Of a stretch of 57,762 nt of DNA, positions 16,983 to 46,376 are shown one piece after another. The notes under the pieces were generated by a model. That model ran no database searches. It saw only the letters and a program-made list of their open reading frames with translations, and was not told the DNA's origin. This stretch comes from Candidatus Fimadaptatus sp. (lineage in GTDB: Bacteria > Bacillota > Clostridia > Christensenellales > Aristaeellaceae), in NCBI GenBank assembly GCA_963928645.1, contig CAWVGT010000109.1, positions 1 to 57,762 of the forward strand. Reading direction: 5' to 3'. The position numbers and the translations under genes are program-made. Each line of letters starts with the position of its first letter. The first letter of the stretch is position 1.

Positions 16983-16986
16983 CGGT

Positions 16987-18243: not shown

Positions 18244-18246
18244 GCG

Positions 18247-21633: not shown

Positions 21634-21653
21634 ATAATGGATTGTTCTAACAG

Positions 21654-22005: not shown

Positions 22006-23151
22006 CTACCTTCTCCCCAGATCCCCACGCTCAGCCCGCCTGAACGCGCCCGGGGTGACGCCCCGTGCCTTGCGGAACGCGCGAGTAAAGTAACTCTGAT
22101 CCTCAAACCCGCAGGCGGCCGCGATATCGCACAGCGGCGCGTCCGACTCGCGCAACAGCTCGCACGCGCGTTCGAGCCGCAGCCTGAGTATGTACTCGAA
22201 CAGCCCTTCGCCTGTCTGCTGATGGAACATGCTGCTCACATACGAGCGGCTCAGGTGCACATGCGCGGCCACGTCGTCGAGCGATATCTTGTCGGCCAGA
22301 TGCTCGCGCACATAGCGCCGCGCCTTGAACAGCGCGTCGGCGTTCACCGCGGGCGTGAAGTTGAACGCGTAGCAGATAAAACCGCGCGTGAGTTCGCCCA
22401 GCCAGACGTTGAGCGAGTCGATGTCGTCAAAGCGCGCTATCTCGCGCGCGTACTCGTCGGGCGCGCGGAAGAACCCCGGCGCGCCGCAGCGCGAGAACAT
22501 GTCAATCAGCCGGAGCGCCCGCGCGCGCAGCGTGTTCACATCCAGATCGCCCGAAAAGTACATGTCGCCCAGTATCTCGTTCATCAGCCGCTGCGCGCCT
22601 ATGCGGTCGCCCTGGGCCACGGCGCGCCGCAGCCGGGTTGCGAATGCCTGGGCGCGGCCGTCGGGTGCGTCGGCACCGCGCGCGCCGGCGGGGGGCTGGG
22701 GCCTGGGCGCGCGCAGGCATATGTCGGCCGCGCATGCGTCGGCGACTCGGCAGTAGCCGCTCAGCCGCGCCGCGGTGTACAGCGGCAGGCTCGCGGCCAG
22801 TTCGGCGGCGTGACAGACCTCGCTGAGCGCGTCCTCGCGGCGCTGTCCCAGCAGCATCGGCCCGGCCATCAGGCAGCCGCGCAGCGCGTCGCGCTCATAC
22901 AGCGCCGTCGTCGCAAACGCCAGCCCGGCCTCGCAAAAGTACACATACGTGCCGCCCCAGCGCAGCGATTCGCGCCCGCCGTACTCGCAAGCGCGCACCG
23001 CGTCGCACAGCCCGCAGCCCGCGCAGTACTTGGGCGCGCGCCCCGGGGCGAATGCGCCGCGCGCCGCATCCATCACGGCTATGTCCAGCTCCGAGAGCGC
23101 GCCCAGCTGCGCCGACATGTCCAGCGCGCGCGCCTCCATTTCGCGCAGCAT
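22006..23151 (-). CDS. AraC-family transcriptional regulator with an N-terminal Cys-containing sensor domain (PocR-like)
   Basis: 381 aa with an AAGGAGGTGA RBS. The C-terminal double HTH is ISLDDVAAHVHLSRSYVSSMFHQQTG...IAAACGFEDQSYFTRAFRKARGVTPGAFR. The PocR-like call for the N-terminal region (CAGCGLCD ... YFCEAGL) is tentative. Confidence 0.8.
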   Translation of the reverse strand: MLREMEARALDMSAQLGALSELDIAVMDAARGAFAPGRAPKYCAGCGLCDAVRACEYGGRESLRWGGTYVYFCEAGLAFATTALYERDALRGCLMAGPMLLGQRREDALSEVCHAAELAASLPLYTAARLSGYCRVADACAADICLRAPRPQPPAGARGADAPDGRAQAFATRLRRAVAQGDRIGAQRLMNEILGDMYFSGDLDVNTLRARALRLIDMFSRCGAPGFFRAPDEYAREIARFDDIDSLNVWLGELTRGFICYAFNFTPAVNADALFKARRYVREHLADKISLDDVAAHVHLSRSYVSSMFHQQTGEGLFEYILRLRLERACELLRESDAPLCDIAAACGFEDQSYFTRAFRKARGVTPGAFRRAERGDLGRR

Positions 23152-24945: not shown

Positions 24946-25746
24946 ATGGCAGGTTATAAGGTTGAGATCTGCGGCGTGGATACATCCTCGCTGCCCGTAC
25001 TGAAGAATGAGCGCATGCGCGAGCTGTTTCCGCGCGTGCACGCGGGCGATGCGGCGGCGCGCAGCGAGCTGATATCGGGCAATCTGCGGCTGGTGCTCAG
25101 CGTGATAGCCCGGTTTACGCGCTCAGGCGCGTATGCCGGCCGGGGCCGGGGCGCGCCGAACGCCGACGACCTGTTCCAGGTGGGCTGCATAGGGCTGATA
25201 AAGGCGATAGACAACTTTGATACCGACAAGGACGTGCGCTTTTCGACTTACGCCGTGCCCATGATAATCGGCGAGATACGCCGCTATCTGCGCGACAACA
25301 ACCCGATACGCGTGTCGCGCTCGCTCAGGGACGTGGCATACAAGGCCATGCAGGCGCAGGGCGAGCTTCAGGGCAGGCTGGGCCGCGAGCCCACGCTTGC
25401 CGAGATAGCCCAAGCCATGGGCGTGGACGCGGACATGGTCTACCTCGCGCTGGAGTCGACCTACGAGCCGGTGTCGCTCTACGATCCGGTCTATCAGGAC
25501 GGCGGCGACGCGATCTGCGTGATCGATCAGGTGCGCGACGAGGGCGTGTCGACCGACAACTGGGCCACGCATCTGGCGCTCAAGAGCGCGATAGACCACC
25601 TGGGCGAGCGCGAGCGCGGCATAGTGCTCAAGCGCTTCTTTGCGGGCAAGACACAGATGGAGGTCGCGCGCGAGATCGGCATATCGCAGGCGCAGGTATC
25701 CCGGCTGGAGAAGGCCGCGCTCAAGGAGATGCGCCGCTACGTGTAA
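24946..25746 (+). CDS. sigG: Sporulation sigma factor sigma-G
   Basis: 266 aa. It is near-colinear with B. subtilis SigG as I recall it: KVEICGVDTSSLPVLKNERMRELF, NLRLVLSVI, DDLFQVGCIGLIKAIDNFD, FSTYAVPMIIGEIRRYLRDNNPIRVSRSLRD, GKTQMEVAREIGISQAQVSRLEKAA. It carries an extra insertion of about 9 aa (AGRGRGAPN) before DDLFQ. Confidence 0.9.
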   Translation: MAGYKVEICGVDTSSLPVLKNERMRELFPRVHAGDAAARSELISGNLRLVLSVIARFTRSGAYAGRGRGAPNADDLFQVGCIGLIKAIDNFDTDKDVRFSTYAVPMIIGEIRRYLRDNNPIRVSRSLRDVAYKAMQAQGELQGRLGREPTLAEIAQAMGVDADMVYLALESTYEPVSLYDPVYQDGGDAICVIDQVRDEGVSTDNWATHLALKSAIDHLGERERGIVLKRFFAGKTQMEVAREIGISQAQVSRLEKAALKEMRRYV

Positions 25747-25802
25747 ATGTGGCCAGGCAACATTGGCGCCGCGTCGGCATATGCTGTGCTGGGGTGGTGC
25801 GC

Positions 25803-26066
25803 GTGACCTTTTCGGAATTGAGGCTCAAGGAAGTGATAAACGTAAGTGACGGCGCGCGACTGGGGCGCGTGATAGACATAGTGTTCGAGCGCGACGCCGC
25901 CTGCGTCGAGTCGATCGTGGTGCCCGGGCCGCGGTGCTTTGCCGACATGCTAAAGGGCGTGCGCCAGGGATATGAGATACATTGGAGCAGCATAAAGGCA
26001 ATCGGCGCCGACGTGATACTGGTCGACGTCGATCCCGAAAAGCTGTGCGCGGGCGCCGAAACGTAA
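25803..26066 (+). CDS. YlmC/YmxH-family sporulation protein (PRC-barrel)
   Basis: The start is GTG 25803 behind GGGGTGGTG. The protein (V)TFSELRLKEVINVSDGARLGRVIDIVFE... matches the typical family N-terminus. Its position directly after sigG fits a sporulation role. Confidence 0.8.
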   Translation: MTFSELRLKEVINVSDGARLGRVIDIVFERDAACVESIVVPGPRCFADMLKGVRQGYEIHWSSIKAIGADVILVDVDPEKLCAGAET

Positions 26067-26766
26067 AGCGGCGCCCGCTCAGTCTATTGACAAAGTATGC
26101 CGCATACGGTCTGTCTGGCCAAACATGCAAAGTGGCCGGCAAAGTGTGCAAATAAAGCGGAAAGCTGCTTATTCCATACCAGTTTTGCAACACTTCTCAT
26201 AGACCGTTTCAAAAAGCCGTTTGCAATAAATCGTTTGTCCAGCCCCGGAGCCTGTCAGCGTTCTGCACGGGCGCCGAAACGTAAAGCGGCGCCCGCTATT
26301 TCGGCTGGCGCGCATGCGGCGCGCGCTGGCCCTGTGGCTGCGACGCAGAGCGGCAGGTTCGCCAAAGGCGCAGCCAGCACGGGCAAATTGGCGGTCATGC
26401 GGGCCGCGCCGCGCCGTGCGCCGACATTTTCTGTGGCTTATCGGGACTTGTTTGGTATTGATTGAGAAAATAATACTTTACAATATGCCTCGAATGATTT
26501 ATAATGTTAAGAAGGGTAGGAATTTATAGGCTCGAATAGGCCGCTCAGCAATACTGCTCAGCGCGGGAGGTCGGGGCGCGCTCAGCGCGGCCGCACCGCT
26601 CGTCGTTTGGCTGGCGTCGGCTTTTTTGATGTCGGTATGCCCGGAAGCGGCAGCTTTACTCGCGGCAGATCGCGCGCGCGATCGAGTCCGGCCATGCCGG
26701 CGCGGTCGCCGAACAGTTTTCAACGTCGAGCGTGACTACCAAATAATGAAAAAGCGAGGGATTGAA

Positions 26767-27468
26767 ATGGCACACGAATTGATATTGGCCGTGGACGATG
26801 AGGCTCACATTCTCGAACTGCTGTCCTTTAATCTGGAGAATGAGGGGTATCGCGTCATGACCGCTGCAAACGGCGAGGACGCGCTTACGGTGTGCACGCG
26901 TGAGCGGCCGTCGCTGGTGCTGCTTGATCTCATGCTGCCCGGCATAGACGGCATGGAGGTCTGCCGCCGGCTCAAGGGCAATACCTCTACGGCGGATATA
27001 CCGATAATCATGCTGACGGCCAAGGGCGACGAGGTCGACAAGGTGCTGGGCCTGGAGCTGGGCGCCGACGACTACATAACCAAGCCCTTCAGCGTGCGCG
27101 AGCTGATAGCGCGCGTCAAGGCGCTGCTCAGGCGCGCCCAGGCGCAAAACGACGAGGAGGGCATACTGCGCGTGGGCCCGCTGGTGATAGATACCAGCAA
27201 TTACGAGGCGTTCCGCAACGGCGAAAAGCTCTCGCTCACGCTCAAGGAGTTCGAGCTGCTCAAGCTGCTTGTGATCTCGCGCGGCAAGGTGCTCACGCGC
27301 GACTTCCTGCTGGATCGCATCTGGGGCTACGAGTTCTACGGCGAGACGCGCACCGTGGACGTGCACATCCGCCATATCCGCCAGAAGCTGGGCGACGACG
27401 CGCACTATATCGAGACCATTCGCGGCGTGGGGTACAAGCTCAACGACAAGCCCGAGGCTAAGGTGTGA
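26767..27468 (+). CDS. OmpR/PhoB-family response regulator
   Basis: Start trimmed to ATG 26767 (MAHELILAVDDEAHILELL...) behind GAGGGA. The receiver domain has LLDLMLPGIDG and MLTAKG. The winged-helix output has LTLKEFELLKLL and TVDVHIRHIRQKL...IETIRGVGYKL. Confidence 0.92.
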   Translation: MAHELILAVDDEAHILELLSFNLENEGYRVMTAANGEDALTVCTRERPSLVLLDLMLPGIDGMEVCRRLKGNTSTADIPIIMLTAKGDEVDKVLGLELGADDYITKPFSVRELIARVKALLRRAQAQNDEEGILRVGPLVIDTSNYEAFRNGEKLSLTLKEFELLKLLVISRGKVLTRDFLLDRIWGYEFYGETRTVDVHIRHIRQKLGDDAHYIETIRGVGYKLNDKPEAKV

Positions 27469-29261
27469 AACCAAGACTTGCGATCTACACCCTTGTCATC
27501 ACGCTCATAACCTGCTTTACCGTGGGGTTTGCCGCCAGCGGCGTGCTCAGAAGCAGCGCGATAGACGCCGCGCAGGATCAACTCGAGGCGCAGGCGCGCA
27601 CGCTGGCCACTATGCTGGAGACAGGCGGCCTGAGCGGAGACAGCGCCGTTATGGAGCAGCTGCGCGACGTCGCGTCCAGCGAGGGCATGCGCATACAGCT
27701 GATTCAGCAGGACGGCACGGTCGTGGCCGATACGCGCACGCTCAGCGGCACAATAACGCTGGATACCGACGAGAACCCCGAGATAGGCGAGGCGTTTTCG
27801 GCAGCCTCCGCACACCGGCTGCGCCGGGAGGGCAGCACGGATATGCTGTACGTGGCGGTGCCGTATTCCAGCTCGCTGGTGCTGCGCCTGGTGAAGTCAA
27901 TGAGCTCGGTGTACAAGGATGTCGATTCGCGCATCCGCGTAATCTGCATGTGGCTGGCCATATCGCCGGCGCTGGCGCTGGTGCTGATATGGTTCATGTC
28001 GCGGATGCTGGGCGATACGGCCAAGCGGTTGCGCGAAGGCTTCAGGCAGCTTGAAAATGGCGAGTTCTCCACGCGCATCGAGGTCAAGCACGCGGATCCG
28101 GATGGGCTGATAAGCGGATTCAACGAGATGGCCGATCAGATAGAGCGCAAGTGGACGAGCGTTCGCCGCCGCAACCATGCGATGAACATGGTGACAAACA
28201 CGATGCAAAACGGCATACTCGCCGTGGACAGCGACCTGCACATAGTGCTGATAAACCCCGCCGCCAAGCAGATGCTGGGCATAGTAGGTTCGGCCGAGGG
28301 CATGTCGATAAGCGAGGCGTCGCACGACGTGCGGCTCAATCCGGTGTTCACCGATGCCATGGCGCAGGAAGGCGTGTACACGCGCGACGTAGTGGCGCGC
28401 ACCGCAGTAGGGCGCGCGCGCCGGCCGCTCAGGCTGTATGTGACCGCGCTGCGCGACGATGGCAATACCGTGGGCGCGCTGGCGCTGGTCGAGGACGTGA
28501 CCGAGCTCAAGCGCCTGGAGCAGGTGCGCACCGACTTCGCCGCCAATGTGTCGCACGAGCTCAAGACGCCGCTGACCAGCATAAAGGGCTTTGTAGAGAC
28601 GCTGCAGGCCGGCGCGATAAACAAGCCCGAGATGGCGCAGAAGTTCCTGAACATAATCATGCTGGAGGCCGACCGGCTCACGCGGCTGATAAACGACATA
28701 CTCTCCATCAGCAAGCTCGAGTCGGGCAACGACAAGGTCGAGATGCAGGCGCTGCAGCTGAATACCATGGCCAATGAGATCTGCGATTTGCTGCGCATGC
28801 ACGCCGAGCAGAAGCATATCACCGTCAACTGCGCCGAAAACGCGCCGCAGACGTTGATCTGGGGCAATCCGGATCGCGTAAAGCAGATGCTCATCAACCT
28901 GATCGACAACGCCATCAAGTACACGCTGGACGGCGGCAGCGTGACGGTAGCCGTGTACAAGGACGACACCACCGCCTACTTCTCGTGCAGCGACACCGGC
29001 ATAGGCATTGCCGAGGAGAACATACCGCGCCTGTTTGAGCGGTTCTACCGCGTGGACAAGGGGCGCTCGCGCTCGATGGGCGGCACCGGTCTGGGCCTGG
29101 CCATAGTCAAGCACATAGTGCTGTCCATGAACGGCCACATAGAGGTGCACTCCAAGCTCGGCGAGGGCACCGAGTTCCTGATATCGATACCGCTGTACAA
29201 CGGCCAGACCGTGCAGCCGGTGACCGGCCAGTCGATGGACTCGGCCGACGAGATTAAGTGA
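27465..29261 (+). CDS. Sensor histidine kinase (two TM segments, HAMP, PAS, HisKA, HATPase; PhoR-like architecture)
   Basis: 598 aa with a GTG start overlapping the response-regulator stop. The H-box is FAANVSHELKTPLTSIKGF, the N-box is NLIDNAIKYT, and the G-boxes are DTGIGI and GGTGLGLAIVKH. Confidence 0.9.
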   Translation: MKPRLAIYTLVITLITCFTVGFAASGVLRSSAIDAAQDQLEAQARTLATMLETGGLSGDSAVMEQLRDVASSEGMRIQLIQQDGTVVADTRTLSGTITLDTDENPEIGEAFSAASAHRLRREGSTDMLYVAVPYSSSLVLRLVKSMSSVYKDVDSRIRVICMWLAISPALALVLIWFMSRMLGDTAKRLREGFRQLENGEFSTRIEVKHADPDGLISGFNEMADQIERKWTSVRRRNHAMNMVTNTMQNGILAVDSDLHIVLINPAAKQMLGIVGSAEGMSISEASHDVRLNPVFTDAMAQEGVYTRDVVARTAVGRARRPLRLYVTALRDDGNTVGALALVEDVTELKRLEQVRTDFAANVSHELKTPLTSIKGFVETLQAGAINKPEMAQKFLNIIMLEADRLTRLINDILSISKLESGNDKVEMQALQLNTMANEICDLLRMHAEQKHITVNCAENAPQTLIWGNPDRVKQMLINLIDNAIKYTLDGGSVTVAVYKDDTTAYFSCSDTGIGIAEENIPRLFERFYRVDKGRSRSMGGTGLGLAIVKHIVLSMNGHIEVHSKLGEGTEFLISIPLYNGQTVQPVTGQSMDSADEIK

Positions 29262-33712: not shown

Positions 33713-33763
33713 AAAAAACGGCGGCCCTACCCGCACCTAAAGCGCCGCGGGCAGGGCCGCCGT
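33713..33763. terminator. Bidirectional terminator between the convergent DapA-like and hydrogenase genes
   Basis: AAAAAACGGCGGCCCTACCCGC-ACCTAAAGCGCC-GCGGGCAGGGCCGCCGT. The A-run on one side serves as a U-run for the minus-strand transcript. Confidence 0.65.
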
Positions 33764-33784: not shown

Positions 33785-35227
33785 TTACTTGCCGGAAAGC
33801 GCGTCGGTCATCGATATGGCGTCGGTTATCGACTTTTCGAAGGCCTCGTGGCCATACGCGTCGACCTCGCTCTTGTCCTTGGCGCCGTGGGTCAGGCAGC
33901 CCGCGCCGCCTATGCAGCCGCTAATGCACGCCATGCCCTCGATGAAGTTCTCGGGCAGCTTGCCCGCGGCCAGCTTGAGCAGCGCCATGCGGCACTGTTC
34001 GATGCCGTCGCAGGCGATCGGGCGGTAGTCGAAGTCTATGTTCTGCTCCTTGCAGGCCTGGCGCACCGCGTCGGACAGGCCGCCGCTGCGCGCGAATATG
34101 CGGCCGTAGTAGCTCGCGTTGTCGAGCACGTCCTCCTCGAGAGAGGACATGTCTATGTCGCGGCTGTCTATCAGCGCCTGCAGCTCCTCAAACGTCAACA
34201 CGCAGTCGACCAGCTCCTTGACGCGGTCGCGCTGGCGCTCGGCCTTCTTGGCGGTGCACGGCCCAATGAAGATTATCTTGCAGTCGGGGTCAGTGGACTT
34301 CATATAGCGCGCTAGCTCGGCCATGGGCGAGAGGTTGTGCGAAATGTACTTGACCAGCTTGGGGAAGGTCTTTTCGATATAGGTCACGAAGGCGGGGCAG
34401 CAGCTGCTGGTCAGCACGCCCTTTTCGGCGAGCTCGCGCGCCTCGGAGAAGGCCACCATGTCGGCGCCCAGCGCAGCCTCGACCACGCTGTAGAAGCCCA
34501 GCTCCTTGAGCGCGGTTATCACCTGGCCCAGCTTCGCGTAGCGGAACTGGCTGGATATCGACGGCGCGACTATGGCGTAGACCTTGTACTTCTCGTTGTT
34601 GTCGCTGCCGCGCAGTATGTTGATCGCGTCGAGTATGTAGGACTTGTCGCTTATGGCGCCGAACGGGCACTGATACACGCACGCGCCGCACGATATGCAC
34701 TTGTTGTCGTCGATATGGGCCACGTTGTCGGCGCCGCGCGATATGGCCTTGACCTTGCACGCCTTTTCGCAGGGGCGCACGTGGCGCACGATGGCGCTGT
34801 ACGGGCAGACCGCGGCGCACCGGCCGCACTCCTTGCACTTTTCAGGGTCGATATGCGCCTTCTGATGATCGTCGAACGATATCGCGTTGGCGGGGCAGGC
34901 GGCCTGGCAGCGGTGCGCGATACAACCGCGGCAGTCTATGCCGACCTCATACCGGCTTATCGGGCACTCGTCGCACGCTATCGGTATGACCTCGATGACG
35001 TTGGCGTTCTGCTTGTCGCCGCCCATCGCGAGCTTGATGCGCTCGTTGAGTATCGCGCGCTCCTTGTATATGCAGCAACGCATCGTGGGCTTGGGGCCGG
35101 GGGCGAGCTGCTTGGGTATGTCCACGTAGCAATCCGGCAGGTTGTCGGCGTAGGCATGGCGCGCGACCTCGCGCAGCACCTCGTATTTGAGCATCTGAAC
35201 GTTGGTATCAAAAATTCGCATGCGCAT
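33785..35227 (-). CDS. [FeFe]-hydrogenase catalytic-type protein (N-terminal multi-[4Fe-4S] region plus H-cluster domain)
   Basis: 480 aa. Ferredoxin motifs are CRGCIAHRCQAACP, CKECGRCAAVCP and CISCGACVYQCP. H-cluster motifs are TSSCCP (L1), GPCTAKKAE (L2) and MACISGCIGGAGC (L3). Confidence 0.88.
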   Translation of the reverse strand: MRMRIFDTNVQMLKYEVLREVARHAYADNLPDCYVDIPKQLAPGPKPTMRCCIYKERAILNERIKLAMGGDKQNANVIEVIPIACDECPISRYEVGIDCRGCIAHRCQAACPANAISFDDHQKAHIDPEKCKECGRCAAVCPYSAIVRHVRPCEKACKVKAISRGADNVAHIDDNKCISCGACVYQCPFGAISDKSYILDAINILRGSDNNEKYKVYAIVAPSISSQFRYAKLGQVITALKELGFYSVVEAALGADMVAFSEARELAEKGVLTSSCCPAFVTYIEKTFPKLVKYISHNLSPMAELARYMKSTDPDCKIIFIGPCTAKKAERQRDRVKELVDCVLTFEELQALIDSRDIDMSSLEEDVLDNASYYGRIFARSGGLSDAVRQACKEQNIDFDYRPIACDGIEQCRMALLKLAAGKLPENFIEGMACISGCIGGAGCLTHGAKDKSEVDAYGHEAFEKSITDAISMTDALSGK

Positions 35228-35276
35228 CCTCCGTACTGGTGGCGCGCCGGGTGGCGCGCGCTGAAGTATTGGGGCT

Positions 35277-35308
35277 TAAAAGAGGCGGCCTTGGGAAAGA
35301 CCGCCCTT
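35277..35308 (-). terminator. Terminator-like hairpin between the PP2C and hydrogenase genes
   Basis: On the minus strand, GGCGGTC-TTTCCCAA-GGCCGCC is followed by TCTTTTAAG. Confidence 0.45.
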
Positions 35309-35313
35309 TGTGC

Positions 35314-36486
35314 TCAGAAGTAGGACACCTTAATGCGCTTGCCCATGCGCTCAAGGCACTTGCTCAGGTTCTCGATGAGCTGTATCTTGATGCCAAAGGT
35401 GATCGGCAGATCGGGGTTCTGGTGCGCGGGGTTAATCGCCTTGCCGACGAAGAAGTTGATGTCGGTCGCGTTTTCGAACAGCTCCTTGGCTATCAGCGAC
35501 GCGCCGTCCTTCTTGCCCAGCCAGCTCACGTCCGAATCCGAACCGTCCAGGAACTGCTGCGCCAGCGCCAGCACGCGCGATATCGTGACCACGCCCTCGG
35601 TGGTCAGATCGACGCCCGCTATGCGGCTTATCGGAGGTATCTCGGGATCGGGGTAATCCAGCGTGGGCACCACGGGCTTGCCAAGGTAGCGCGCGGCCAC
35701 CGTGGCGGTCGTGCCGCCGCAGACTATCTTGGTGCCCTGCTTGGAGAAGAACAGGTTCATCATCTTTATGTCCTGATCGCGCGTGGAAGGCGGGCCTATG
35801 ACCAGGTTGACCTGCTGGCGCTTGCGCACGCGCATCACGGCCAGCGTGGTATCGTCGCCGGGCTCGTTCTGATAGAGCGCGTTGCAGGCGTCGGCTATAA
35901 TGCCCGCGGTGGTCTTGGCGGAGTTGTCGGGGGAGTAGTTCTCCTCGGCGAACTTAATGATGTCGTCGCGCTGCCAGCCGTAGTTGAACGACATGCCTAT
36001 GCCGGCGTATATCGCGCCGTCGCTCATCGCTATGAACACGTCGTTTTCGCATACCGGGAAGCGGCTCTCGTGTATCGTCTTGCCCTCGACCACGCGCGTG
36101 GTCATAGGATAGTCCCAGTTCTTGCCGTCGCGCAGCACGATCACGTTGGGGTTGTCGAACTGTATCAGCTCGCAGACCTCGTTGTCGAGCATGCGCACCA
36201 CGGTGAACGTGGAGTAGGCTATCTTGCGCACCTGGCAGACCGGCAGCGTGCTGGCGATGGTGTTGACGCACTCGTCTATCGGCATGCCGCCGGCTATCAT
36301 AGTGCAGAGTATCTTGCTGGTGAGCGTGGACAGTATGTTGGCCTTGACGCCCGAGCCCAGCCCGTCGGCGAGCACCATTATCGTGGAATCATCAGTTGAG
36401 GATATCTCGACGCGATCGCCGCAGAGCTGCTCGCCATGCTTGTTGAGCGATACGTATCCCACATCGGTGCACAGATTATTTGCCAT
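35314..36486 (-). CDS. SpoIIE/PP2C-family serine phosphatase with a C-terminal domain of unknown role
   Basis: I take the start as ATG 36484-36486 (MANNLCTDVGYVSLNKHGEQLCGDRVE...), which overlaps the upstream stop as ATGGCAAATAA. PPM motifs are LADGLGSGVKA, MSDGAIYAG and GDDTTLAV. Confidence 0.85.
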   Translation of the reverse strand: MANNLCTDVGYVSLNKHGEQLCGDRVEISSTDDSTIMVLADGLGSGVKANILSTLTSKILCTMIAGGMPIDECVNTIASTLPVCQVRKIAYSTFTVVRMLDNEVCELIQFDNPNVIVLRDGKNWDYPMTTRVVEGKTIHESRFPVCENDVFIAMSDGAIYAGIGMSFNYGWQRDDIIKFAEENYSPDNSAKTTAGIIADACNALYQNEPGDDTTLAVMRVRKRQQVNLVIGPPSTRDQDIKMMNLFFSKQGTKIVCGGTTATVAARYLGKPVVPTLDYPDPEIPPISRIAGVDLTTEGVVTISRVLALAQQFLDGSDSDVSWLGKKDGASLIAKELFENATDINFFVGKAINPAHQNPDLPITFGIKIQLIENLSKCLERMGKRIKVSYF

Positions 36487-38149
36487 CCTGCATCGCATCC
36501 TTCAGCTTAGTGAGCGCGAGCTTGGTCTCGGCGGTGGTCTCGCCCAGCAGCGACGCGATCTCCTGAACCACGCGCATCTGCTTGTCTATGACCTTGTCCG
36601 TCACCTCGACGGTCTGGCGCTTGAGCTCCTGCTCCTGTTCGCGGGTCTGTTCGCGCTCAGTGACGTCGCGCATTATGCTAATGAGTATCTTGTACTGCTT
36701 GTCGTAGGTCACCGTCTCCTCGACATACAGCTTGTATTCGGGTATGTAGTGGCACTTGTTGACGATGCTGTTGCCGGTCTGCACGACCAGCATGTAGTCG
36801 GTGGGGTCGAGCAGCCGGACTATCGGCGCCTTCACGATATCGTCGGGCGAGCGAAGCTTGAACATGCGCTGCGCCGCGGCGTTTATCTGCTGCACGATCA
36901 AATCCTCGTTCATAACGATTATCGCGTTGGGCGTGGACGATATTATCTTGTCGGAGAAGGACTCGGCCTTCTCGCGCAGGAACGGCAGGCACATGCCGAT
37001 CTCGGCCTTGCCCATGCACACCGCCGCCGCCTTGTCGCGACAGGTCGGATAGCCGCAGCAGCCGCAGTTGAGCTCCTTGTCGGGGGAGGTCTTGCCCATT
37101 GCGATCATGACCTCCTGAATCGCGGCGCTGCCGGGCATCACGCGCCTGAGGCCGCTGGGCGCGAACTGCTCGGCCATGTTGGCGGGCGCCTTGGCCTCGA
37201 AGTCGGAATGGCCGGCATACGAGGCGACCTTGAGCACGCCGGTGAGCGGGCGCTCCGCGTGTTCGCGCAGTATCGGGCCGCTTATGCAGCTGCCCTTGCA
37301 CGCGCTCATCTCGATAAACGCGTTGTCAAAGCTGCCGGCGCGCATCTCGTCGAGCGCGGCCATGCAGCTGTCGGTGCCGTCCAGCGCGATGTACTCAAAG
37401 CCCTTGGGCAGATCCATGGACTTGAGTATGCCGCCGGTGGTGGGGTAGAAGCGGGAGCGCTTGCCGTCGGCGTGCTCGCGGGGCTTGGAGACCGGGCGGA
37501 TGCTCTGCGCGTCCAGCCAGTCGCTCAGCTCGTCGAACGTGAGGCAGGCGTCGACCATGCTGGACTCGTCGGCCTCCTTCTTCTTGGCGATGCAGGGGCC
37601 GATGAACACGGTGAACGCGTCGGGCTCGCGCTCCTTGATCGCCTTGCAGTGGGCCTGCATCGGCGAGAGCACGTGCGCGAGCTTGTCGAGCAGGTCGGGG
37701 TAGTACTTCTGTATCAGCGAATTGATCGCCGGACAGCAGCTGGTTATGATGACGCGTCCATGCCCCGCGCTCGCCAGCATGCGCTCATATTCGCGCGAGA
37801 CGAACTGCGCGCCTATCGCGGTCTCCTCCGCGCCCGCAAAGCCGAGCTGGCGCAGCGTATCGGCCATGTCCTCGATATCCGCAAAGCCGGTGCCGGTTAC
37901 GAACGAGGGCGCGACCGAGGCGATCACGCGCTTGCCGGCGCGCAGCGCGTCGCGCACCTTCTGTGCGTCGCCGCGCACCTGCTTGGCGTTCTGGGGACAG
38001 ACTACGTAGCACTGGCCGCACAGTATGCACTCGTCCTCGATTATCTGCGCCTGGTTGTCGGCGAAGCTTATCGCCTTGACCGGACAGGAGCGTATGCACT
38101 TGTAGCAGTCCTTACAGCCCGAGGGCTTGAGCTTCAGGTATTCTTGCAT
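36476..38149 (-). CDS. Sensory-type [FeFe]-hydrogenase (HydS-like, group C) with a C-terminal Cys cluster and PAS domain
   Basis: 557 aa. The N-terminus has 2x[4Fe-4S] (CKDCYKCIRSCP, CILCGQCYVVCP). H-domain motifs are TSCCP, GPCIAKKKE, and the atypical L3 MSACKGSCISGP. A CGCCGYPTC...C cluster follows, then a PAS-like region (TPNAIIVMNEDLIVQQINAAAQRMF) and a coiled-coil tail. Confidence 0.85.
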   Translation of the reverse strand: MQEYLKLKPSGCKDCYKCIRSCPVKAISFADNQAQIIEDECILCGQCYVVCPQNAKQVRGDAQKVRDALRAGKRVIASVAPSFVTGTGFADIEDMADTLRQLGFAGAEETAIGAQFVSREYERMLASAGHGRVIITSCCPAINSLIQKYYPDLLDKLAHVLSPMQAHCKAIKEREPDAFTVFIGPCIAKKKEADESSMVDACLTFDELSDWLDAQSIRPVSKPREHADGKRSRFYPTTGGILKSMDLPKGFEYIALDGTDSCMAALDEMRAGSFDNAFIEMSACKGSCISGPILREHAERPLTGVLKVASYAGHSDFEAKAPANMAEQFAPSGLRRVMPGSAAIQEVMIAMGKTSPDKELNCGCCGYPTCRDKAAAVCMGKAEIGMCLPFLREKAESFSDKIISSTPNAIIVMNEDLIVQQINAAAQRMFKLRSPDDIVKAPIVRLLDPTDYMLVVQTGNSIVNKCHYIPEYKLYVEETVTYDKQYKILISIMRDVTEREQTREQEQELKRQTVEVTDKVIDKQMRVVQEIASLLGETTAETKLALTKLKDAMQDGK

Positions 38150-38382
38150 TTAGCCAACACTTCCTTTTCAAAGAAGGCTTCCGTGGTTTCAGGCTTGACC
38201 GAGAACTTCTCCCCGTCGAGCGTCAGGCAAACGCCGTTCATGCAATCGCCCATGCAGAACTGCCCGCCGAGTTCCACCTGGTCCTGAAGGTTATTGTCGT
38301 TGACGAGCTGCTGCAGCTTCTCCACTATCTGGCGGGACCCCTTGAGATGGCAGGAGCTGCCGATGCAAATCGTTATCTTCAT
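38134..38382 (-). CDS. Thioredoxin-like [2Fe-2S] ferredoxin (NuoE/HndA-like small protein)
   Basis: Start trimmed to ATG 38380-38382 (MKITICIGSSCHLKG...). The Cys pattern is Cx4C...Cx3C (CIGSSC, CMGDC). The 3' end overlaps the hydS-like start by 16 nt. Confidence 0.8.
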   Translation of the reverse strand: MKITICIGSSCHLKGSRQIVEKLQQLVNDNNLQDQVELGGQFCMGDCMNGVCLTLDGEKFSVKPETTEAFFEKEVLAKCKNT

Positions 38383-38470
38383 GTACGTACACACCTTTCC
38401 TTATCGAAATATATTGGGTTGACAACGCCATGCGCCCCTGCGGGCGCGAGTTATACTGTATTATTCTATG

Positions 38471-39169
38471 CTATACTGCGTTTTCCCTGCTGCGCTCGGG
38501 CGTATGCGCAATTTTTGTCATGTTTTCGCGCTCATTTTCGGGCACGGCCTCGGCCAGGTGCTTGGACAGCATAGCCAGCGACGCGGCCATGTTCTCGGTC
38601 TGCACCAGCACGCCCTCGGGCACGTACAGGTGAATCGGCGCAAAGTTCCATATGGCCTTTATGCCGGCTTCGACCAGCGCGTCGCACACCGACTGCGCCT
38701 GCGACGCGGGCACGGTTATTATGCCTATGTGCACGCCCAGGCGCCGGCATATGTCGCCCAGCCGCTCCATTGTAAATATCTGCTTGCCGGATTCGGTGGC
38801 GCCGGTGCGCTCGGGGTCGGAGTCGAACGCCGCCAGTATGTTCAGACCGTATGACTTAAAGCCGTCGTATTCCATCAGCGCGCGGCCCAGCCGCCCGGCG
38901 CCGACCAGCACCGCGTCGTGCGCGTTGTTGTAGCCCAGGAAGTTCTCGATCTCGTCTATCAACTGAGTCGTTACGTATCCGACCTTGGGGCGGCCTGAGC
39001 TGGACACCTGCGCCAGATCCTTGCGCACCTGAACCTGGCCCAGCCCCAGCGCGTCGGCAATGCCCGTGGCCGATATGTACTCGGGCGCGTCGGGTCCCAG
39101 CGACTTTAGATAGCTCAGGTAGCGCGGCAATCTGCGCAGCGTGGGCTGCGATATTGTGCTCACCGTCAT
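38471..39169 (-). CDS. rex: Redox-sensing transcriptional repressor Rex
   Basis: Start trimmed to ATG 39167-39169 (MTVSTISQPTLRRLPRYLSYL...) behind AAGGAGG. The winged helix is ISATGIADALGLGQVQVRKDL, the Rossmann motif is VLVGAGRLGRAL, and IWNFAP is present. Confidence 0.92.
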   Translation of the reverse strand: MTVSTISQPTLRRLPRYLSYLKSLGPDAPEYISATGIADALGLGQVQVRKDLAQVSSSGRPKVGYVTTQLIDEIENFLGYNNAHDAVLVGAGRLGRALMEYDGFKSYGLNILAAFDSDPERTGATESGKQIFTMERLGDICRRLGVHIGIITVPASQAQSVCDALVEAGIKAIWNFAPIHLYVPEGVLVQTENMAASLAMLSKHLAEAVPENERENMTKIAHTPERSRENAV

Positions 39170-39434
39170 TGTACGGCCTCCTTTCCGGCTCACCTTCGGT
39201 ATAAATTATAGCGCACTTTTGTTAACACAATGAGTATAGCGCTAGAATTCTATCGATAATCCATGACCTAATATTGGCTGCGCCGCCGCGGCGGACAAAA
39301 AAAGTTGAGCGCGCGCCGCGCGGGCGGTTTCACACGCGTCCAAACGGGGTACAATTTATCTGTGGGCTTATTTGAGTGGGCACCCGGCCGGTGCCGCAGC
39401 GGCGGTCAACCGGTTTGAATATGAAGGGGGATAT

Positions 39435-41498: not shown

Positions 41499-42560
41499 TT
41501 ATTGCAGATATCCCGCGATCAGCTCGCCGCAGCGCCGGCAGCCGACCCGGGTCGCGCCGGCGCCCATTATGTCGGCGGTGCGATAGCCCGCGTCCAGGAA
41601 CGCCGACACCGCGGCCTCTATTGCGTTCGCCTCGCGCGGCAGGTCGAAGCTGAAGCGCAGCATCATCGCTGCTGCTAGTATGGTGCCGATGGGGTTGGCG
41701 ATATCCTGGCCGGCGATGTCCGGAGCCGAGCCGTGTATCGGCTCGTACAGGCCGCATGCGCTCGCGCCCAGGCTGGACGAGGGTATCATGCCTATCGAGC
41801 CGGTTATCATGGACGCCTCGTCCGAGAGTATGTCGCCGAACATGTTCTCGGTCACGATCACGTCGAACTGCGAAGGATCCTTTACGATCTGCATCGCGCA
41901 GTTGTCGACCAGCATGTCGCTCAGCGCAACGTCGGGGTATTCGTGGGCCAGCTCGTGCATGACCTGCTTCCACAGCCGGCTCGAATCCAGCACGTTTGAC
42001 TTCTCCACCGAGCAAAGCCGGCCGCGCCGCCGGCGCGCAGTCTCAAATCCGATGCGCCCTATGCGCTCTATCTCGGCACGGCTGTACCGGAGCACGTCTA
42101 TCGCGGTATCGCCCTCGGTGCGGTGCTCGCCAAAGTATATGCCGCCGATCAGCTCGCGCACTATGATGAAGTCTATGCCCTTGTCTACGATCGACTGCCT
42201 GAGCGGCGACGCGTCGGCCAGCTGCGGCCAGATCCTGGCCGGGCGGTTGTTGGAGTACACGCCCATGCCGGCGCGCAGCCGGAGCAGGCCCTTTTCGGGG
42301 CGCATCGGGCCGGGCACGTCGTTCCACTTGGGGCCGCCGACCGCGCCCAGCAGCACGCTGTCGGATTCCACGCACCTTTTGAGCATGTCGGCCGGCAGCG
42401 GGTCGCCCCAGCGGTCGATCGCGCAGCCGCCCATGTCCACGTCTATGTACTCGAAGCTGTGGCCGTACAGCGCGGCCACGCGGTCGAGCACGCGCATCGC
42501 CTGCGCGACTATCTCGGGGCCTATGCCGTCGCCGCGAATCACCGCTATCCGCTTATCCAT
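41499..42560 (-). CDS. leuB: 3-isopropylmalate dehydrogenase
   Basis: 353 aa with [44 protein letters not shown] and [12 protein letters not shown] motifs. Confidence 0.95.
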
Positions 42561-43050
42561 TCGCCGCGCCTTCTTTCAGCGACTTGAGCAGCCCGCCGCT
42601 TCTTATTATATTCTGTATGAACGGCGGGAAGGGCTGCGCGCGGAACGACTCGCCGGTCGTCAGGTCGGTTATAACGCCGGTATCGAAATCCACGCTGACC
42701 TCGTCGCCGGCGCTTATGGCGTCGGCCGCGGCCTCGCACTCGAGTATGGGCATGCCTATGTTTATAGCGTTGCGGTAGAATATGCGCGCAAAGCTCTTGG
42801 CGATTATGCAGCCCACGCCGCAGGTCTTTATCACCAGCGGCGCGTGCTCACGCGACGAGCCGCAGCCAAAGTTCCAGCCGCCCACAATCACGTCGCCCGC
42901 GCTCACGCGCTTTACGAAGTCGGCGTCGATGTCCTCCATGCAGTGCTGCGCCAGCTCCTGCGCGTCGGGCGTGTTCAGATAGCGCGCGGGTATTATCACG
43001 TCGGTGTCCACGTTGTCGGGATATTTGAATACCTTGCCCTTGGCGTTCAT
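42553..43050 (-). CDS. leuD: 3-isopropylmalate dehydratase small subunit
   Basis: 165 aa with [14 protein letters not shown] and [15 protein letters not shown] motifs. It overlaps the leuB start by 8 nt. Confidence 0.93.
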
Positions 43051-43053
43051 CGC

Positions 43054-44313
43054 TCAAGCCTCCTTGTACTCGGTTATGTAGCCGGCCAGCGCGCTGGCCG
43101 CGGCGGTGTGCGGCGAGGCCAGGTACACCTCGCTGTCCACGTGGCCCATGCGCCCCACGAAGTTGCGGTTGGTCGTGGCCACGCAGCGCTCGCCCGCGGC
43201 GAGTATGCCCATGTATCCGCCCAGGCAGGGCCCGCAGGTCGGCGTGGACACGACCGCGCCCGCGTCTATGAACGCGGTGTACCAGCCGCGCTGCACGCAC
43301 TCGCGCAGTATCTGCATCGTGCCGGGTATTATTATGCAGCGCACGCCGCGGGCTATCTGCTTGCCATTGATTATGTTGTACGCGGCCTCCATGTCCTCCA
43401 GGCGGCCGTTGGTGCAGGAGCCTATCACGACCTGAACGATGGCAATGTCGTGCAGCTCGCTGGCGGGGCGGGTGTTCTCGGGCAGGTGCGGGCAGGCGAC
43501 GGTGGGCACAATCGCGCTCAGGTCGATGTCGATTACGCGCTCGTACTCGGCGTCGGCGTCGGCCGCATACTCTACCGGGGTGCGCTCGCTGCGGCCCGCG
43601 AGGTAGGCGCGCGTCACGTCGTCGACCGGGAATATGCCGTTCTTGGCGCCGGCCTCGACCGCCATGTTGCAGATGCAGAGCCGGTCGTCCATCGAGAGCG
43701 CGCGCACGCCCTCGCCCGTGAACTCCATGCTCTTGTAGAGCGCGCCGTCCACGCCTATCATGCCTATGATCGTCAGTATCACGTCCTTGCCGGAGCAGTT
43801 GCCCGGCAGCCTGCCGGTCAGGTTGAACTTGATCGCCGAAGGCACCTTGAACCAGGCCGTGCCCGTGGCCATGCCCGCGGCCATGTCGGTGGAGCCAACG
43901 CCAGTGGAAAACGCGCCCAGCGCGCCATAGGTGCAGGTGTGGCTGTCCGCGCCGATTATGCAGTCGCCCGCGGTCACTATGCCCTGCTCGGGCAGCAGCG
44001 CGTGCTCAATGCCCATCCTGCCGACGTCGTAGAAGTGGCTGACGCAGTGAGCGCACGCGAACTCGCGGCTGGTCTTGGACTGCTCGGCGGCCTTGATGTC
44101 CTTGTTGGGCACGAAGTGATCCAGCACTATCGCGATCCGGTCGCGATCGAACACGCCCTCAAAGCCCGCCTTTTTGAACTCGTTCACGGCCACGGGCGTG
44201 GTTATGTCGTTGCCCAGCACGATGTCCAGCCTGGCGCTTATCAGCTGTCCGGCGACCACGCTGTCCAGCCCGGCGTGGGCGGCCAGTATCTTCTGAGTCA
44301 TTGTCATTGCCAT
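43054..44313 (-). CDS. leuC: 3-isopropylmalate dehydratase large subunit
   Basis: 419 aa with aconitase-family motifs: [23 protein letters not shown], and the cluster Cys residues in IGSCTNGR and CGPCLG. Confidence 0.93.
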
Positions 44314-44316
44314 AGA

Positions 44317-45987
44317 TCATTTGCCTCCTTTGGTCATGTTCTGAAACGCGCTCAGGAGCGCCTTGGTGCTGGCGGTAATTACGTCGGTATCGGTGCCCGC
44401 GCCCCAGAACATATCTCCGTTTTCGCGCTCAAGTCCTATGTAGGATGCCGCGACGCTGCGCGAGCCCTGGCCCTGCATGCTGTGCTGGGTGAACACCTGC
44501 AGCGCGTACTCCTCGCCGGTGAACTCCTTGAGCGCGTTGTTTATCGCGTTGAGGGTGCCGTTGCCCTCGGCCTCGAGCTCGGTCTCTTCGCCGTCGCGCA
44601 GGAAGGTTATCGTTATCTTTACCGTGTCGTTCTCGCGCATGAAGTCGAAGTCGCTCACGCTGATGCGGCACGGCAGGTTCAGGTAGTTCTCGGTGAATAT
44701 GTCCAGCACCTCGTTGGGCTTGAGTTCCTTGTGCTCGCGGTCGGATATGCCCTTGCACATGTAGCTGAAGTGCTCGCGCATCTTGGGCGGCAGGTTGTAG
44801 CCAAACGTCTGCTCGAGCAGCGAGCCGATCCCGCCCTTGCCGGACTGGGAGTTTACGCGGATCACGTCCGCGTCGTAGGTGCGGCCGATGTCGGTCGGAT
44901 CGATCGGTATGTACGGCACGCTCCACTCGTGCAGCTTTTTGCGCTTGCGGTACTTCATGCCCTTGGCTATGGCATCCTGGTGGCTGCCCGAGAACGCCGC
45001 GAACACCAGCGCGCCGGCGTAGGGCGTGCGCTCGTAAACGTGCATGCGGGTGCACTTCTCGTACTCCTCGACCAGGTAGTTCATGTTCGAGAAGTCGAGC
45101 TTGGGATCTACGCCGTGCGAGTACATGTTCAGTGCCAGCGTGATTATGTCGACGTTGCCGGTGCGCTCGCCGTTGCCAAACAGCGTGCCCTCCACTCGCT
45201 CCGCGCCCGCCAGCAGCGCCAGCTCGGTATCGGCCACGCCGGTGCCGCGATCGTTGTGGGGATGCAGCGAGAGCGTCACGTACTCGCGGTACTTCAGGTT
45301 TTCGCTCATGAACTCTATCTGGCTGGCGTAGACGTGCGGCAGGCTCATCTCGACCGTGGCCGGTATGTTGATTATCACGTTGTTGTCAGGCCCGGGCTCC
45401 AGCACGTCCAGCACCGCGTTGCACACCTCCAGCGAGTACTCGGGCTCGGCGCCGGTGAACGATTCGGGCGAGTACTCGAACCGGAAGTTGCCCTCGTATT
45501 CGCCGGCCAGCTTCTTGACCAGCTTCGCGCCGTCGATCGCTATCTGCTTTATCTCGTCCTTTGACTTTTTAAACACCTGCTCGCGCTGCGCCACGCTGAC
45601 CGAATTGTAGAAGTGGATTATCGCGCTGGGCGCGCCCTTGCAGGCCTCAAACGTCTTGCGTATTATGTGCTCGCGGCACTGCGTGAGCACCTGCACCGTC
45701 ACGTCCGGAGGTATCATGCCGTTGTCTATCAGCGTGCGCAGGAACTCGAACTCGGTGTCGCTGGCCGCTGGAAAGCCGACCTCTATCTCCTTGAACCCGA
45801 CGCCCAGCAGCACCTTGTAGTACTCCAGCTTTTCCTCCAGGCTCATGGGGATGACCAGGCTCTGGTTGCCGTCGCGCATGTCCACGCTGCACCAGATGGG
45901 GGGATGCTCTATGTGGTCGCGCTCAGACCACTTGCTGTACTTAGTGTCGACGGGGAAATAGCCCACGCGGTACTTGGTCGAATCCAT
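44317..45987 (-). CDS. leuA: 2-isopropylmalate synthase, long (LeuA type 2) form
   Basis: Start trimmed to ATG 45985-45987 (MDSTKYRVGYFPVDTKYSKW...) behind AAGGAGAAG. It has WCSVDMRDGNQS, LSLHPHNDRGTG and a C-terminal LeuA dimerisation/regulatory domain. Confidence 0.93.
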   Translation of the reverse strand: MDSTKYRVGYFPVDTKYSKWSERDHIEHPPIWCSVDMRDGNQSLVIPMSLEEKLEYYKVLLGVGFKEIEVGFPAASDTEFEFLRTLIDNGMIPPDVTVQVLTQCREHIIRKTFEACKGAPSAIIHFYNSVSVAQREQVFKKSKDEIKQIAIDGAKLVKKLAGEYEGNFRFEYSPESFTGAEPEYSLEVCNAVLDVLEPGPDNNVIINIPATVEMSLPHVYASQIEFMSENLKYREYVTLSLHPHNDRGTGVADTELALLAGAERVEGTLFGNGERTGNVDIITLALNMYSHGVDPKLDFSNMNYLVEEYEKCTRMHVYERTPYAGALVFAAFSGSHQDAIAKGMKYRKRKKLHEWSVPYIPIDPTDIGRTYDADVIRVNSQSGKGGIGSLLEQTFGYNLPPKMREHFSYMCKGISDREHKELKPNEVLDIFTENYLNLPCRISVSDFDFMRENDTVKITITFLRDGEETELEAEGNGTLNAINNALKEFTGEEYALQVFTQHSMQGQGSRSVAASYIGLERENGDMFWGAGTDTDVITASTKALLSAFQNMTKGGK

Positions 45988-46080
45988 AGCTGCAACTTCT
46001 CCTTCTGCGCTCAGTAATCGGGAAACTGTGGCGCCGCGGGCGAACCCGGCGGCCAGGCGGGCCGCGCCCTGCCGGGCGAT

Positions 46081-46376
46081 AAAAAACACCCGTCCCAAAG
46101 CACGTGCTCGCTTTGAGACGGGTGAAACATACTTGCCACTCGCGGTACCACTCAAATTGCGGATATCCATCCGCCACCTCTTTGAAGTCAAACAACTTCT
46201 ATGCACTGACGTAGCATGCACGGGGCGCCCTACTTAACTCTCCGAAAGAGGTTCAGGAGCCCGGCTCGAAAGGCAGAGGACAAAGGGCTCGCGTGCCGGT
46301 TTGCACCAACCACCGGCTCTCTGGGACGCACTGCGCCTTGACCATTCTTCGTCATAGCCTTTGTGTTATTTAATTG
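46081..46376 (-). ncRNA. T-box leader (tRNA-sensing riboswitch) of the leuACDB operon
   Basis: On the minus strand: the T-box motif AATTTGAGTGGTACCGCGAG (46139-46158); the terminator CACCCGTCTCAAAG...CTTTGGGACGGGTG plus TTTTTT (46081-46124); and an upstream AGAGAG element followed by the hairpin CCGGTGGTTGGTGCAAACCGG, which fits a Stem-I distal region. Specifier candidates are CUC and CUU, but the codon is not resolved. Confidence 0.85.

Follow-up and report, generated by a model that had tools for sequence, protein, structure and literature searches.

A rex–hfsABCD-type operon probably pairing an H2-sensor-like [FeFe]-hydrogenase with a PP2C phosphatase in an uncultured chicken-gut Clostridia bacterium

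The DNA stretch analysed here (57.8 kb, referred to as the window) originates from an uncultured chicken-gut Clostridia bacterium with 62% G+C. Its minus strand carries five co-directional genes between positions 33785 and 39193, namely rex, hfsA, hfsB, hfsC and hfsD; the arrangement had been proposed in a first-pass annotation of the letters alone and was confirmed with the open reading frame (ORF) table, Pfam and NCBIfam. We read the region as rex followed by an hfsABCD-type operon, in which HfsB resembles an H2 sensor, HfsC is a phosphatase and HfsD is a working hydrogenase, and we assign a probability of about 75% to this reading. Exact-sequence look-ups with the HfsB and HfsC proteins of the window returned no record, and homologues were used for context. 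The comparison set comprised 84 loci encoding HfsC relatives, annotated with the window's own proteins, and the denominators given below vary by feature.

The rex product scored 292.8 bits against the Rex equivalog model NF003994 of NCBIfam (cutoff 130) and contained the winged helix-turn-helix domain PF06971 (Put_DNA-bind_N) and the Rossmann domain PF02629 (CoA_binding). HfsA matched Pfam PF01257 with a score exactly equal to the cutoff (24.8 bits), and its length of 82 amino acids (aa) is also that found in the 92%-identical relatives. The HfsC homologues are 390 aa long and begin with MANN.., therefore the true start of hfsC was placed at 36486 and not at the upstream ATG at 36498. The hfsD ORF opens with two in-frame ATG codons 6 nucleotides (nt) apart (35227 and 35221), a GGAGG sequence abutting the first and lying 6 nt upstream of the second. 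Because of this spacing, and because the homologues are 478 aa long and begin with MRKFDT (the window protein read from 35221 begins with MRIFDT), the second ATG is the most likely start. The gene previously listed as a 480-aa hydrogenase does encode a hydrogenase, but a length of 478 aa is more likely.

HfsB opens with two N-terminal [4Fe-4S] motifs; the H-domain comes next, then a Cx2Cx4Cx16C motif in the C-terminal part, a PAS domain and, last, a long terminal helix. The Pfam matches were Fe_hyd_lg_C (2e-50), Fer4, the FeS family PF04060 and PAS (25.9 bits, cutoff 22.6). HfsB and HfsD are paralogues with 33% identity over the H-domain, and both carry the H-cluster motifs TSCCP, GPCxAKK and either MSACKGSC or GMACISGC. 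The retention of all four H-cluster cysteines, noted earlier for both hydrogenases, was supported by these motifs and by alignment to CpI (C300, C355, C499 and C503 of HfsB in CpI numbering). In comparison to CpI, HfsB shows the replacements E279Y, S319A, R286A, M353G and M497S and keeps E282 and a Cys equivalent to C299. Among 75 HfsB orthologues, Tyr at E279 and Gly at M353 were found in all 75, Ser at M497 in 73 and Ala at S319 in 68. The L3 motif that had been called deviant (EMSACxGSCxxGP) is indeed present and is part of the pattern of the whole family, SSCC[HP] / GPC / EMSACxGSC; the window protein reads TSCCP where SSCCH is usual. The extra cysteine cluster reported together with it (C362, C365, C370 and C387) forms an exact Cx2Cx4Cx16C, the motif by which the C-terminal [4Fe-4S] site is defined in groups C and D (PMC8163306).

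HfsB reached 214 of the 450 bits required by the B1 model and 109 of the 406 bits required by the group A model; as these values are far below both cutoffs, its profile scores place it in neither group A nor group B. The sensory interpretation, set against that of a group A or B catalyst whose proton pathway is intact, stands in view of these low scores and of the five replacements. HydDB designates group C3 as ‘phosphatase-linked’, and HfsB is genetically linked to a Ser/Thr phosphatase by a stop/start overlap in the window and in 72 of 76 related loci. Judged by sequence, HfsB appears to belong to the sensory [FeFe]-hydrogenases of group C (phosphatase-linked, C3-like), and its proton pathway is predicted to be broken. 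TmHydS of Thermotoga maritima (group C / M2f) shares with it the two N-terminal [4Fe-4S] motifs, the H-domain, Cx2Cx4Cx16C, the PAS domain and, for HfsB at least in part, the loss of the canonical proton pathway, and M353G and M497S are the substitutions reported for that protein; TmHydS is linked to a bifurcating hydrogenase, whereas HfsB is linked to a PP2C phosphatase and a group B enzyme. TamHydS of Thermoanaerobacter mathranii (group D / M2e), also a putative sensory enzyme, resembles HfsB in its C-terminal [4Fe-4S] cluster and in the altered active-site pocket, but it lacks the PAS domain and carries M353S and M497L.

A search of 1.8 billion representative proteins with HfsC returned 482 clusters of relatives at E < 1e-30, most of them of about 390 aa, and an alignment of 99 diverse members (31–56% identity to the window protein) revealed conservation over the full length. 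The PPM metal ligands D24, D41-G42, D156 and D211/D212, which correspond to D628/G629, D746 and D795 of SpoIIE (PMC8080068), are invariant or at least 90% conserved in these homologues; the metal-binding Asp residues expected of a PPM enzyme are all present on alignment. The AlphaFold (AF2) model of HfsC had a predicted local distance difference test (pLDDT) score of 93.8 and a predicted template-modelling (pTM) score of 0.92. Foldseek matched residues ~1–225 to 5mqh (3.8e-14), 3pu9 (1.2e-13) and 3w40 (2.6e-11), and the structural matches of the PP2C domain comprised SpoIIE, a Sphaerobacter phosphatase, RsbX and the RsbU-like Rv1364c (E 4e-14 to 1e-10). In the model, helices 46–65 and 70–80, located after the DG motif, occupy the position of the alpha-helical regulatory switch described for SpoIIE and RsbU (PMC8080068). 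The C-terminal domain gave a pLDDT of 89.7 when modelled alone. No significant match was obtained for it in a Foldseek search of the PDB (best E = 0.015, TM-score < 0.4), and Pfam returned no match even at E ≤ 0.1; a docking or ligand-binding role of this domain is only a guess. From sequence and model, HfsC appears to be a catalytically competent PP2C of the SpoIIE/RsbU type extended by a conserved C-terminal domain. It shares the PP2C fold, the metal-binding Asp set and the two post-DG helices of the regulatory switch with SpoIIE, RsbU and RsbX of Bacillus, in which the regulatory domains are N-terminal, whereas the extra domain of HfsC is C-terminal and HfsC has no linked STAS substrate.

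HfsD scored 572 bits against TIGR04105 (FeFe_hydrog_B1, cutoff 450), with residues 6–447 covering model positions 1–461 of 462. The four cluster cysteines are kept, as are E279, E282, S319, C299 and M497 of CpI, alongside R286K and M353G. Its proton-transfer pathway is predicted to be intact and of the group A type, and HfsD is a predicted working H2-evolving enzyme. An apparent HfsC-HfsD fusion in one relative (L023) proved artefactual and was traced to an alternative frame that stays open in the G+C-rich DNA; the end of HfsC is normal there and hfsD has its own ATG.

The hfsA and hfsB reading frames overlap by 16 nt (38134–38149), and the hfsB stop and the hfsC start share ATGGCAAATAA, both as first described. 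The hfsB/hfsC overlap was found in 72 of 76 related loci, where it usually measures 8 nt, so that coupled translation of the sensor and the phosphatase is a conserved trait. The earlier claim of stoichiometric co-translation holds as far as the overlapping frames imply coupling, but stoichiometry is not proven by an overlap. The coordinates of the genes and of the other features are collected in Table 1.

Table 1. Features of the rex–hfsABCD region and one kinase gene of a related locus (window positions unless a locus is named)
Feature	Position	Strand	Remarks
rex, redox-sensing transcriptional repressor	38471–39169	-	232 aa from ATG 39169; GAGRLG Rossmann motif; start and ribosome-binding site read
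hfsA, thioredoxin-like [2Fe-2S] ferredoxin	38134–38382	-	82 aa; Cx4C...Cx3C ligands C6, C11, C43, C47
hfsB, HydS-like putative H2-sensing [FeFe]-hydrogenase	36476–38149	-	557 aa; Pfam and CpI alignment
hfsC, PP2C (SpoIIE/RsbX-like) Ser/Thr phosphatase with C-terminal alpha/beta domain	35314–36486	-	390 aa; Pfam SpoIIE 1.8e-13
HfsC C-terminal alpha/beta domain, residues ~226–390	35314–35811	-	invariant CGGTTA / TEGxxT / VGxAxNPAH
hfsD, group B1 ferredoxin-type [FeFe]-hydrogenase	33785–35221	-	478 aa from second ATG; TIGR04105
probable rex promoter region	39205–39236	-	TATAAT -10 box 39205–39210, preceded by TACTCATTGTGTTAACAA at 39219–39236
GC hairpin in 88-nt rex–hfsA spacer	38432–38447	-	GCGCCC-GCAG-GGGCGC; no T-run after it
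terminator-like hairpin directly 3' of hfsC stop	35279–35309	-	-17.4 kcal/mol, z = -3.7; weak U-run UCUUUU after it
second GC hairpin, hfsD leader	35242–35259	-	GCGCGCC-ACCC-GGCGCGC; -19.9 kcal/mol; 0/200 shuffles as good
strong intrinsic terminator after hfsD, operon end	33713–33762	-	long GC stem, then TTTTTT
kinase gene, example from a related locus	L001:6921–7670		directly upstream of hfsA, likewise in 33 further loci

In the related loci, hfsB lies directly upstream of hfsC in 72 of 74 cases and hfsA upstream of hfsB in 72 of 73; hfsA is duplicated in 31 of 77. The gene downstream of hfsC is hfsD in 63 of 71 loci, the remaining 8 having no hfsD there. The hfsA-B-C triad is thus a nearly invariant core across these loci, and it travels with different catalytic partners. 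In three loci (L090–L092), hfsA-hfsB-hfsC occurs with neither hfsD nor the kinase gene described below and diverges from an operon for a NuoE/NuoF-type bifurcating hydrogenase. Clustering of all neighbouring ORFs revealed the recurrent neighbour families. In 28 of 68 loci (~40%), hfsA is directly preceded by a gene for a 249-aa kinase (Pfam APH and RIO1), and upstream of the hfs genes are found adhE (20/52), a LysR regulator gene (18/50) and rex (12/50); nfnAB occurs occasionally, at variable positions near them. Extended arrangements most often read lysR-(rex)-adhE-kinase-hfsA(A')BCD. The window and its closest relatives represent the shortest form, with rex adjoining hfsA and unrelated genes on both sides, that is, a reduced rex-hfsABCD form with neither adhE nor the kinase gene at the locus.

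The same four co-directional genes, in the same order as in the window, constitute hfsABCD of Thermoanaerobacterium saccharolyticum and T. thermosaccharolyticum, where regulation is reportedly linked to adhE and rex (Shaw 2009; Eminoglu 2017, PMC5707799; PMC11837493). The first-pass proposal of a PAS-containing sensory hydrogenase and phosphatase equivalent to this system was borne out, the gene order recurring in nearly all of the 84 related loci and matching the published one. The window differs from it in that rex directly adjoins hfsA, that hfsC and hfsD are 92 nt apart with two hairpins in between, and that the host is a mesophilic, high-G+C gut Clostridia bacterium. Deletion of hfsA/B in Thermoanaerobacterium leads to a higher ethanol yield and higher adhE expression, an effect that needs hfsC/D (PMC5707799). 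The extended order seen in the relatives matches the eight-gene, H2-responsive HydS-HydA2 cluster of Ruminococcus albus 7, which shares with the window locus a group C PAS hydrogenase, a Ser/Thr phosphatase, a ferredoxin-only hydrogenase, the association with Rex and a proposed H2-dependent control, and the expression of which is 111-fold down at low H2 (Greening 2019, PMC6776011). The R. albus cluster contains adhE and a Ser/Thr kinase gene, whereas the window locus has neither; its catalytic partner was described as group A1, and HfsD is B1 by TIGR04105. A 2014 abstract by Zheng reportedly lists rex, adhE, a kinase, a phosphatase, HydS and HydA2 for the R. albus cluster. The system has therefore already been described for its gene content, genetics and transcript response, and the window is a further, ordinary and reduced representative. 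Its peculiarities are modest: rex joined to the operon, adhE and the kinase gene lost from the locus, a structured hfsC–hfsD spacer and TSCCP in place of SSCCH.

The phosphoprotein on which HfsC acts was approached through the kinase of the relatives, in which the catalytic residues K24, HGD149–151, N156 and D169 do not vary. Scanned with Pfam, essentially the full gene set of the window contained no STAS, anti-sigma kinase, Ser/Thr kinase or HydE/F/G gene, and tblastn of the 249-aa kinase against the window gave no match; the first-pass statement that no STAS, anti-sigma or kinase partner is encoded here is correct for all 57.8 kb. A second, independent sample was obtained by a kinase-seeded search of metagenome contigs (L093–L172). 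In it, adhE was located directly upstream of the kinase gene in 46 of the 48 loci with enough upstream sequence. Of the 36 loci with both flanks, hfsC lay downstream in 25, and 11 held an adhE-kinase pair without hfs genes. With adhE upstream in 46/48 and hfsC downstream in 25/36, the kinase is primarily a companion of adhE, tied to it more tightly than to hfs. Since the kinase is adhE-linked and published Thermoanaerobacterium results fit, AdhE is the best and most economical candidate phosphoprotein for the kinase and HfsC, as suggested by gene neighbourhood only. In Thermoanaerobacterium, hfsB deletion shifts the NADH-dependent alcohol dehydrogenase activity out of proportion to the aldehyde dehydrogenase activity and to the transcript, and the authors suspect post-transcriptional regulation (PMC5707799); hfsD, nfnAB and adhE were found to work together (PMC11837493).

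Residue 85 of HfsC (Gln in the window, 36232–36234) immediately follows the helices predicted to form the PP2C switch. All 34 kinase-adjacent cases among the first 85 loci had Ser at this position; of the 37 kinase-less ones, 21 carried K, E, A, Q, D or N. About eight independent changes were counted, and the position was the sole column with such a kinase association among HfsB, HfsC and HfsD. Ser85 as an obligatory target of the kinase was refuted by the kinase-seeded sample, in which 7 of 38 proteins had another residue (S 31, A 4, K 3). The enrichment of Ser85 (65/72 kinase-linked, 16/37 kinase-less and 17/99 in the broad HfsC family) may be phylogenetic in origin.

The best structural matches of the PP2C domain, SpoIIE, RsbX and the RsbU-RsbW protein Rv1364c, would also suit a different substrate. 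HfsC could be a partner-switching phosphatase like SpoIIE and RsbU, acting on a STAS anti-anti-sigma factor encoded elsewhere in the genome and thereby controlling a sigma factor; the abstract of PMC11418112 names STAS proteins as typical targets of this PPM subfamily. We regard this as very improbable, as no STAS or anti-sigma family recurs when the gene families that the 85 neighbourhoods have in common are compared (those that recur are the kinase, adhE, lysR, rex and nfnAB), no STAS or anti-sigma gene is present in the window, and the linked kinase is of the RIO/APH type and not a GHKL anti-sigma kinase.

Under the preferred reading of the region as a rex–hfsABCD-type operon, HfsB, with HfsA as its redox partner, would report the H2 partial pressure and change how active the translationally coupled HfsC is, the alpha-helical switch of the PP2C domain being the most plausible route. 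HfsC would in turn dephosphorylate a protein governing the balance between H2 evolution by HfsD and ethanol formation by AdhE. These steps are drawn from published genetics and transcriptomics of Thermoanaerobacterium and R. albus. Gene neighbourhoods further suggest that HfsC would be opposed by the small RIO/APH-like kinase encoded between adhE and hfsA in relatives. The logic resembles that of HoxBC-HoxJ-HoxA of Cupriavidus necator, where a low-activity hydrogenase serves as an H2 sensor controlling phosphorylation-dependent regulation of the catalytic hydrogenases; this is an analogy only, as the Hox hydrogenase proteins are unrelated [NiFe] proteins and the output is a histidine kinase with a response regulator and not a PP2C.

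Several observations weigh against the sensor-and-phosphatase reading. There is no published experiment on H2 sensing by HfsB in vivo or on phosphatase activity of HfsC, and a 2026 study of TamHydS found its C-terminal cluster to be unresponsive to H2 and called its partners unknown. The assignment to the hfsABCD / HydS-HydA2 type rests on architecture and published descriptions. The window holds no kinase, adhE or other candidate substrate, and the AdhE idea is inapplicable to this genome without the rest of the assembly. A scan for Rex operators (TTGTGAA-N4-TTCACAA and TTGTTAA-N4-TTAACAA), which had been suggested with the first-pass annotation, found no site with three or fewer mismatches near the cluster. 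The sequence is present in chicken-gut metagenomes and metatranscriptomes, and, in favour of the reading, short contigs from two metatranscriptomic runs match hfsA, hfsB, hfsC and hfsD and cross the A/B and B/C junctions; the hfs genes are expressed in vivo, as read from contigs that are short and of low depth and may include DNA carry-over. The hfsC–hfsD spacer is covered by contigs of none of the four runs. The C299-equivalent Cys is kept in 73 of 75 HfsB orthologues and in the window protein, whereas TmHydS has Ala; a Cys occurs at this position in only ~17% of the HydDB sensory sequences. With this Cys retained, HfsB may therefore have more catalytic capacity than TmHydS.

The retained Cys, together with the four H-cluster cysteines and unlike the situation in TmHydS and TamHydS, also agrees with the proposal, implied by the original naming, that HfsABCD is simply one multi-subunit ferredoxin-dependent hydrogenase. 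HfsB would then be a second catalytic subunit, HfsA an electron-transfer subunit and HfsC a structural or maturation protein, with no H2 signalling involved. The hfs genes are translationally coupled, TmHydS and TamHydS show slow H2 turnover, and an HfsABC hydrogenase functional without HfsD has been raised as a possibility (PMC13277313). We nevertheless consider the proposal distinctly unlikely. E279Y is invariant, S319A, M353G and M497S are typical of sensory enzymes, and neither a PAS domain nor a PP2C with intact metal ligands has a catalytic role. The deletion of hfsB increases hydrogenase activity, and partial and whole-operon deletions differ in their effects, which points to regulation (PMC5707799); moreover, hfsABC also occurs without hfsD (8/71 loci), beside a bifurcating hydrogenase.

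The adjacency of rex had been taken as a sign that NADH/NAD+ sensing and H2 sensing are coupled. The linkage does recur among the relatives, but mostly via adhE, and no recognisable Rex operator was identified in the window. Close to the cluster, the sequence most like a Rex box is TACTCATTGTGTTAACAA (39219–39236), which departs from the consensus at 4 of the 14 specified positions and overlaps the presumed promoter of rex. As many as 11 sites of the window are as good, which makes it weak evidence, and the rex–hfsA spacer contains none better than 6 mismatches. The one near-match to a Rex site (3 mismatches, 44172–44189) falls inside the coding sequence of the leu operon and is probably due to chance. 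Clostridial-type Rex boxes (TTGTTAA-N4-TTAACAA, 2–3 mismatches) are present upstream of adhE or hfsA in several relatives. These data also fit the view that the adjacency is a relic of an ancestral rex-adhE-kinase-hfsA order left after the loss of adhE and the kinase gene, with Rex controlling hfs no more than other members of its regulon. The usual position of rex in relatives is ~3.3 kb upstream, beyond adhE and the kinase gene (lysR-rex-adhE-kinase in 5 loci, rex-adhE-kinase in 2); rex abuts hfsA only in L060, L065 and the 92%-identical relatives, and L081 shows rex-kinase-hfsA. This view is a serious possibility, yet we hold it to be somewhat less probable than its opposite. The Rex operators of a high-G+C lineage may deviate from the consensus used, and because the rex–hfsA spacer has neither a terminator nor a recognisable sigma-70 promoter on the minus strand, co-transcription of rex and hfsABC is plausible; a single rex-hfsABC transcript would itself be a form of coupling. 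The spacer is bridged by a contig of one ambiguous ‘RNA?’ run. Taken as a whole, it folds no better than shuffled sequences (z = -0.9).

The hfsC–hfsD spacer measures 86–92 nt in the window and holds two hairpins, in comparison to a median gap of ~13 nt in the relatives; the long spacer, hairpin included, is common to the window and the 92%-identical relatives and is otherwise unusual. A hairpin with a T-run (35277–35308) had been annotated between the phosphatase and hydrogenase genes. The hairpin itself was recovered directly after hfsC, only 1 of 200 shuffles folding equally well, and it is kept at the same position in the 92%-identical relatives L085 and L088; the run is only weak (UCUUUU), however, and a consensus terminator scan made no call at 35279–35309. 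The element may be a partial terminator or an RNA-stability element. In the minimum-energy fold, the flanks of the second hairpin (35242–35259) pair with part of the GGAGG ribosome-binding site of hfsD. The sequence of this hairpin is not conserved in the relatives, which have a different small hairpin there instead.

Elsewhere in the window, a complete aromatic amino-acid (shikimate) operon occupies 10547–18693 on the plus strand, in part within a stretch of ~69% G+C, and encodes 3-deoxy-D-arabino-heptulosonate 7-phosphate (DAHP) synthase, 3-dehydroquinate (DHQ) synthase, 5-enolpyruvylshikimate-3-phosphate (EPSP) synthase, chorismate synthase, chorismate mutase-prephenate dehydratase, a shikimate dehydrogenase-kinase fusion and type II dehydroquinase. 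A leuA-leuC-leuD-leuB operon is located at 41499–46221 on the minus strand. A URO-D-family protein (MtaA/CmuA-like) and a CobW GTPase are encoded at 19662–23151, in a 71% G+C stretch beside a gene for an AraC/PocR-type regulator, and a second URO-D-like gene lies at 231–1184; the URO-D and CobW genes may represent a corrinoid methyltransferase system. Genes for a sigma-70-family factor and a PRC-barrel protein, followed by those for an OmpR-type response regulator and a PAS histidine kinase, are found at 24946–29261 on the plus strand; they lie ~4.5 kb from hfsD on the opposite strand, with no evidence of a link to hfs. Three minus-strand ORFs of 573, 617 and 196 aa (47490–49211, 5007–6860 and 4420–5010) have coding-like codon bias and no Pfam match at E ≤ 1e-5.

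The interest of these observations lies in the signalling step of the system and not in this particular locus. Putative H2-sensing [FeFe]-hydrogenases occur widely among gut and rumen fermenters, where they are thought to decide whether electrons exit as H2 or as ethanol, a matter of relevance to methane mitigation, gut gas production and biofuel strains. The comparison yields three leads, namely the invariant HfsA-B-C core, a PP2C phosphatase with an unannotated C-terminal domain, and an adhE-linked kinase that points to AdhE. A bolder extension, which we rate as rather doubtful, is that HfsA-B-C forms a self-contained, H2-controlled phosphatase switch, its PP2C bearing a C-terminal alpha/beta domain not described before, that opposes the adhE-linked kinase in most relatives, with AdhE as the phosphoprotein; the lineage of the window would then represent a kinase-independent re-wiring, co-transcribed with Rex and directed at another target such as HfsD or Rex. 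If true, the switch would constitute a post-translational control of ethanol formation by H2.

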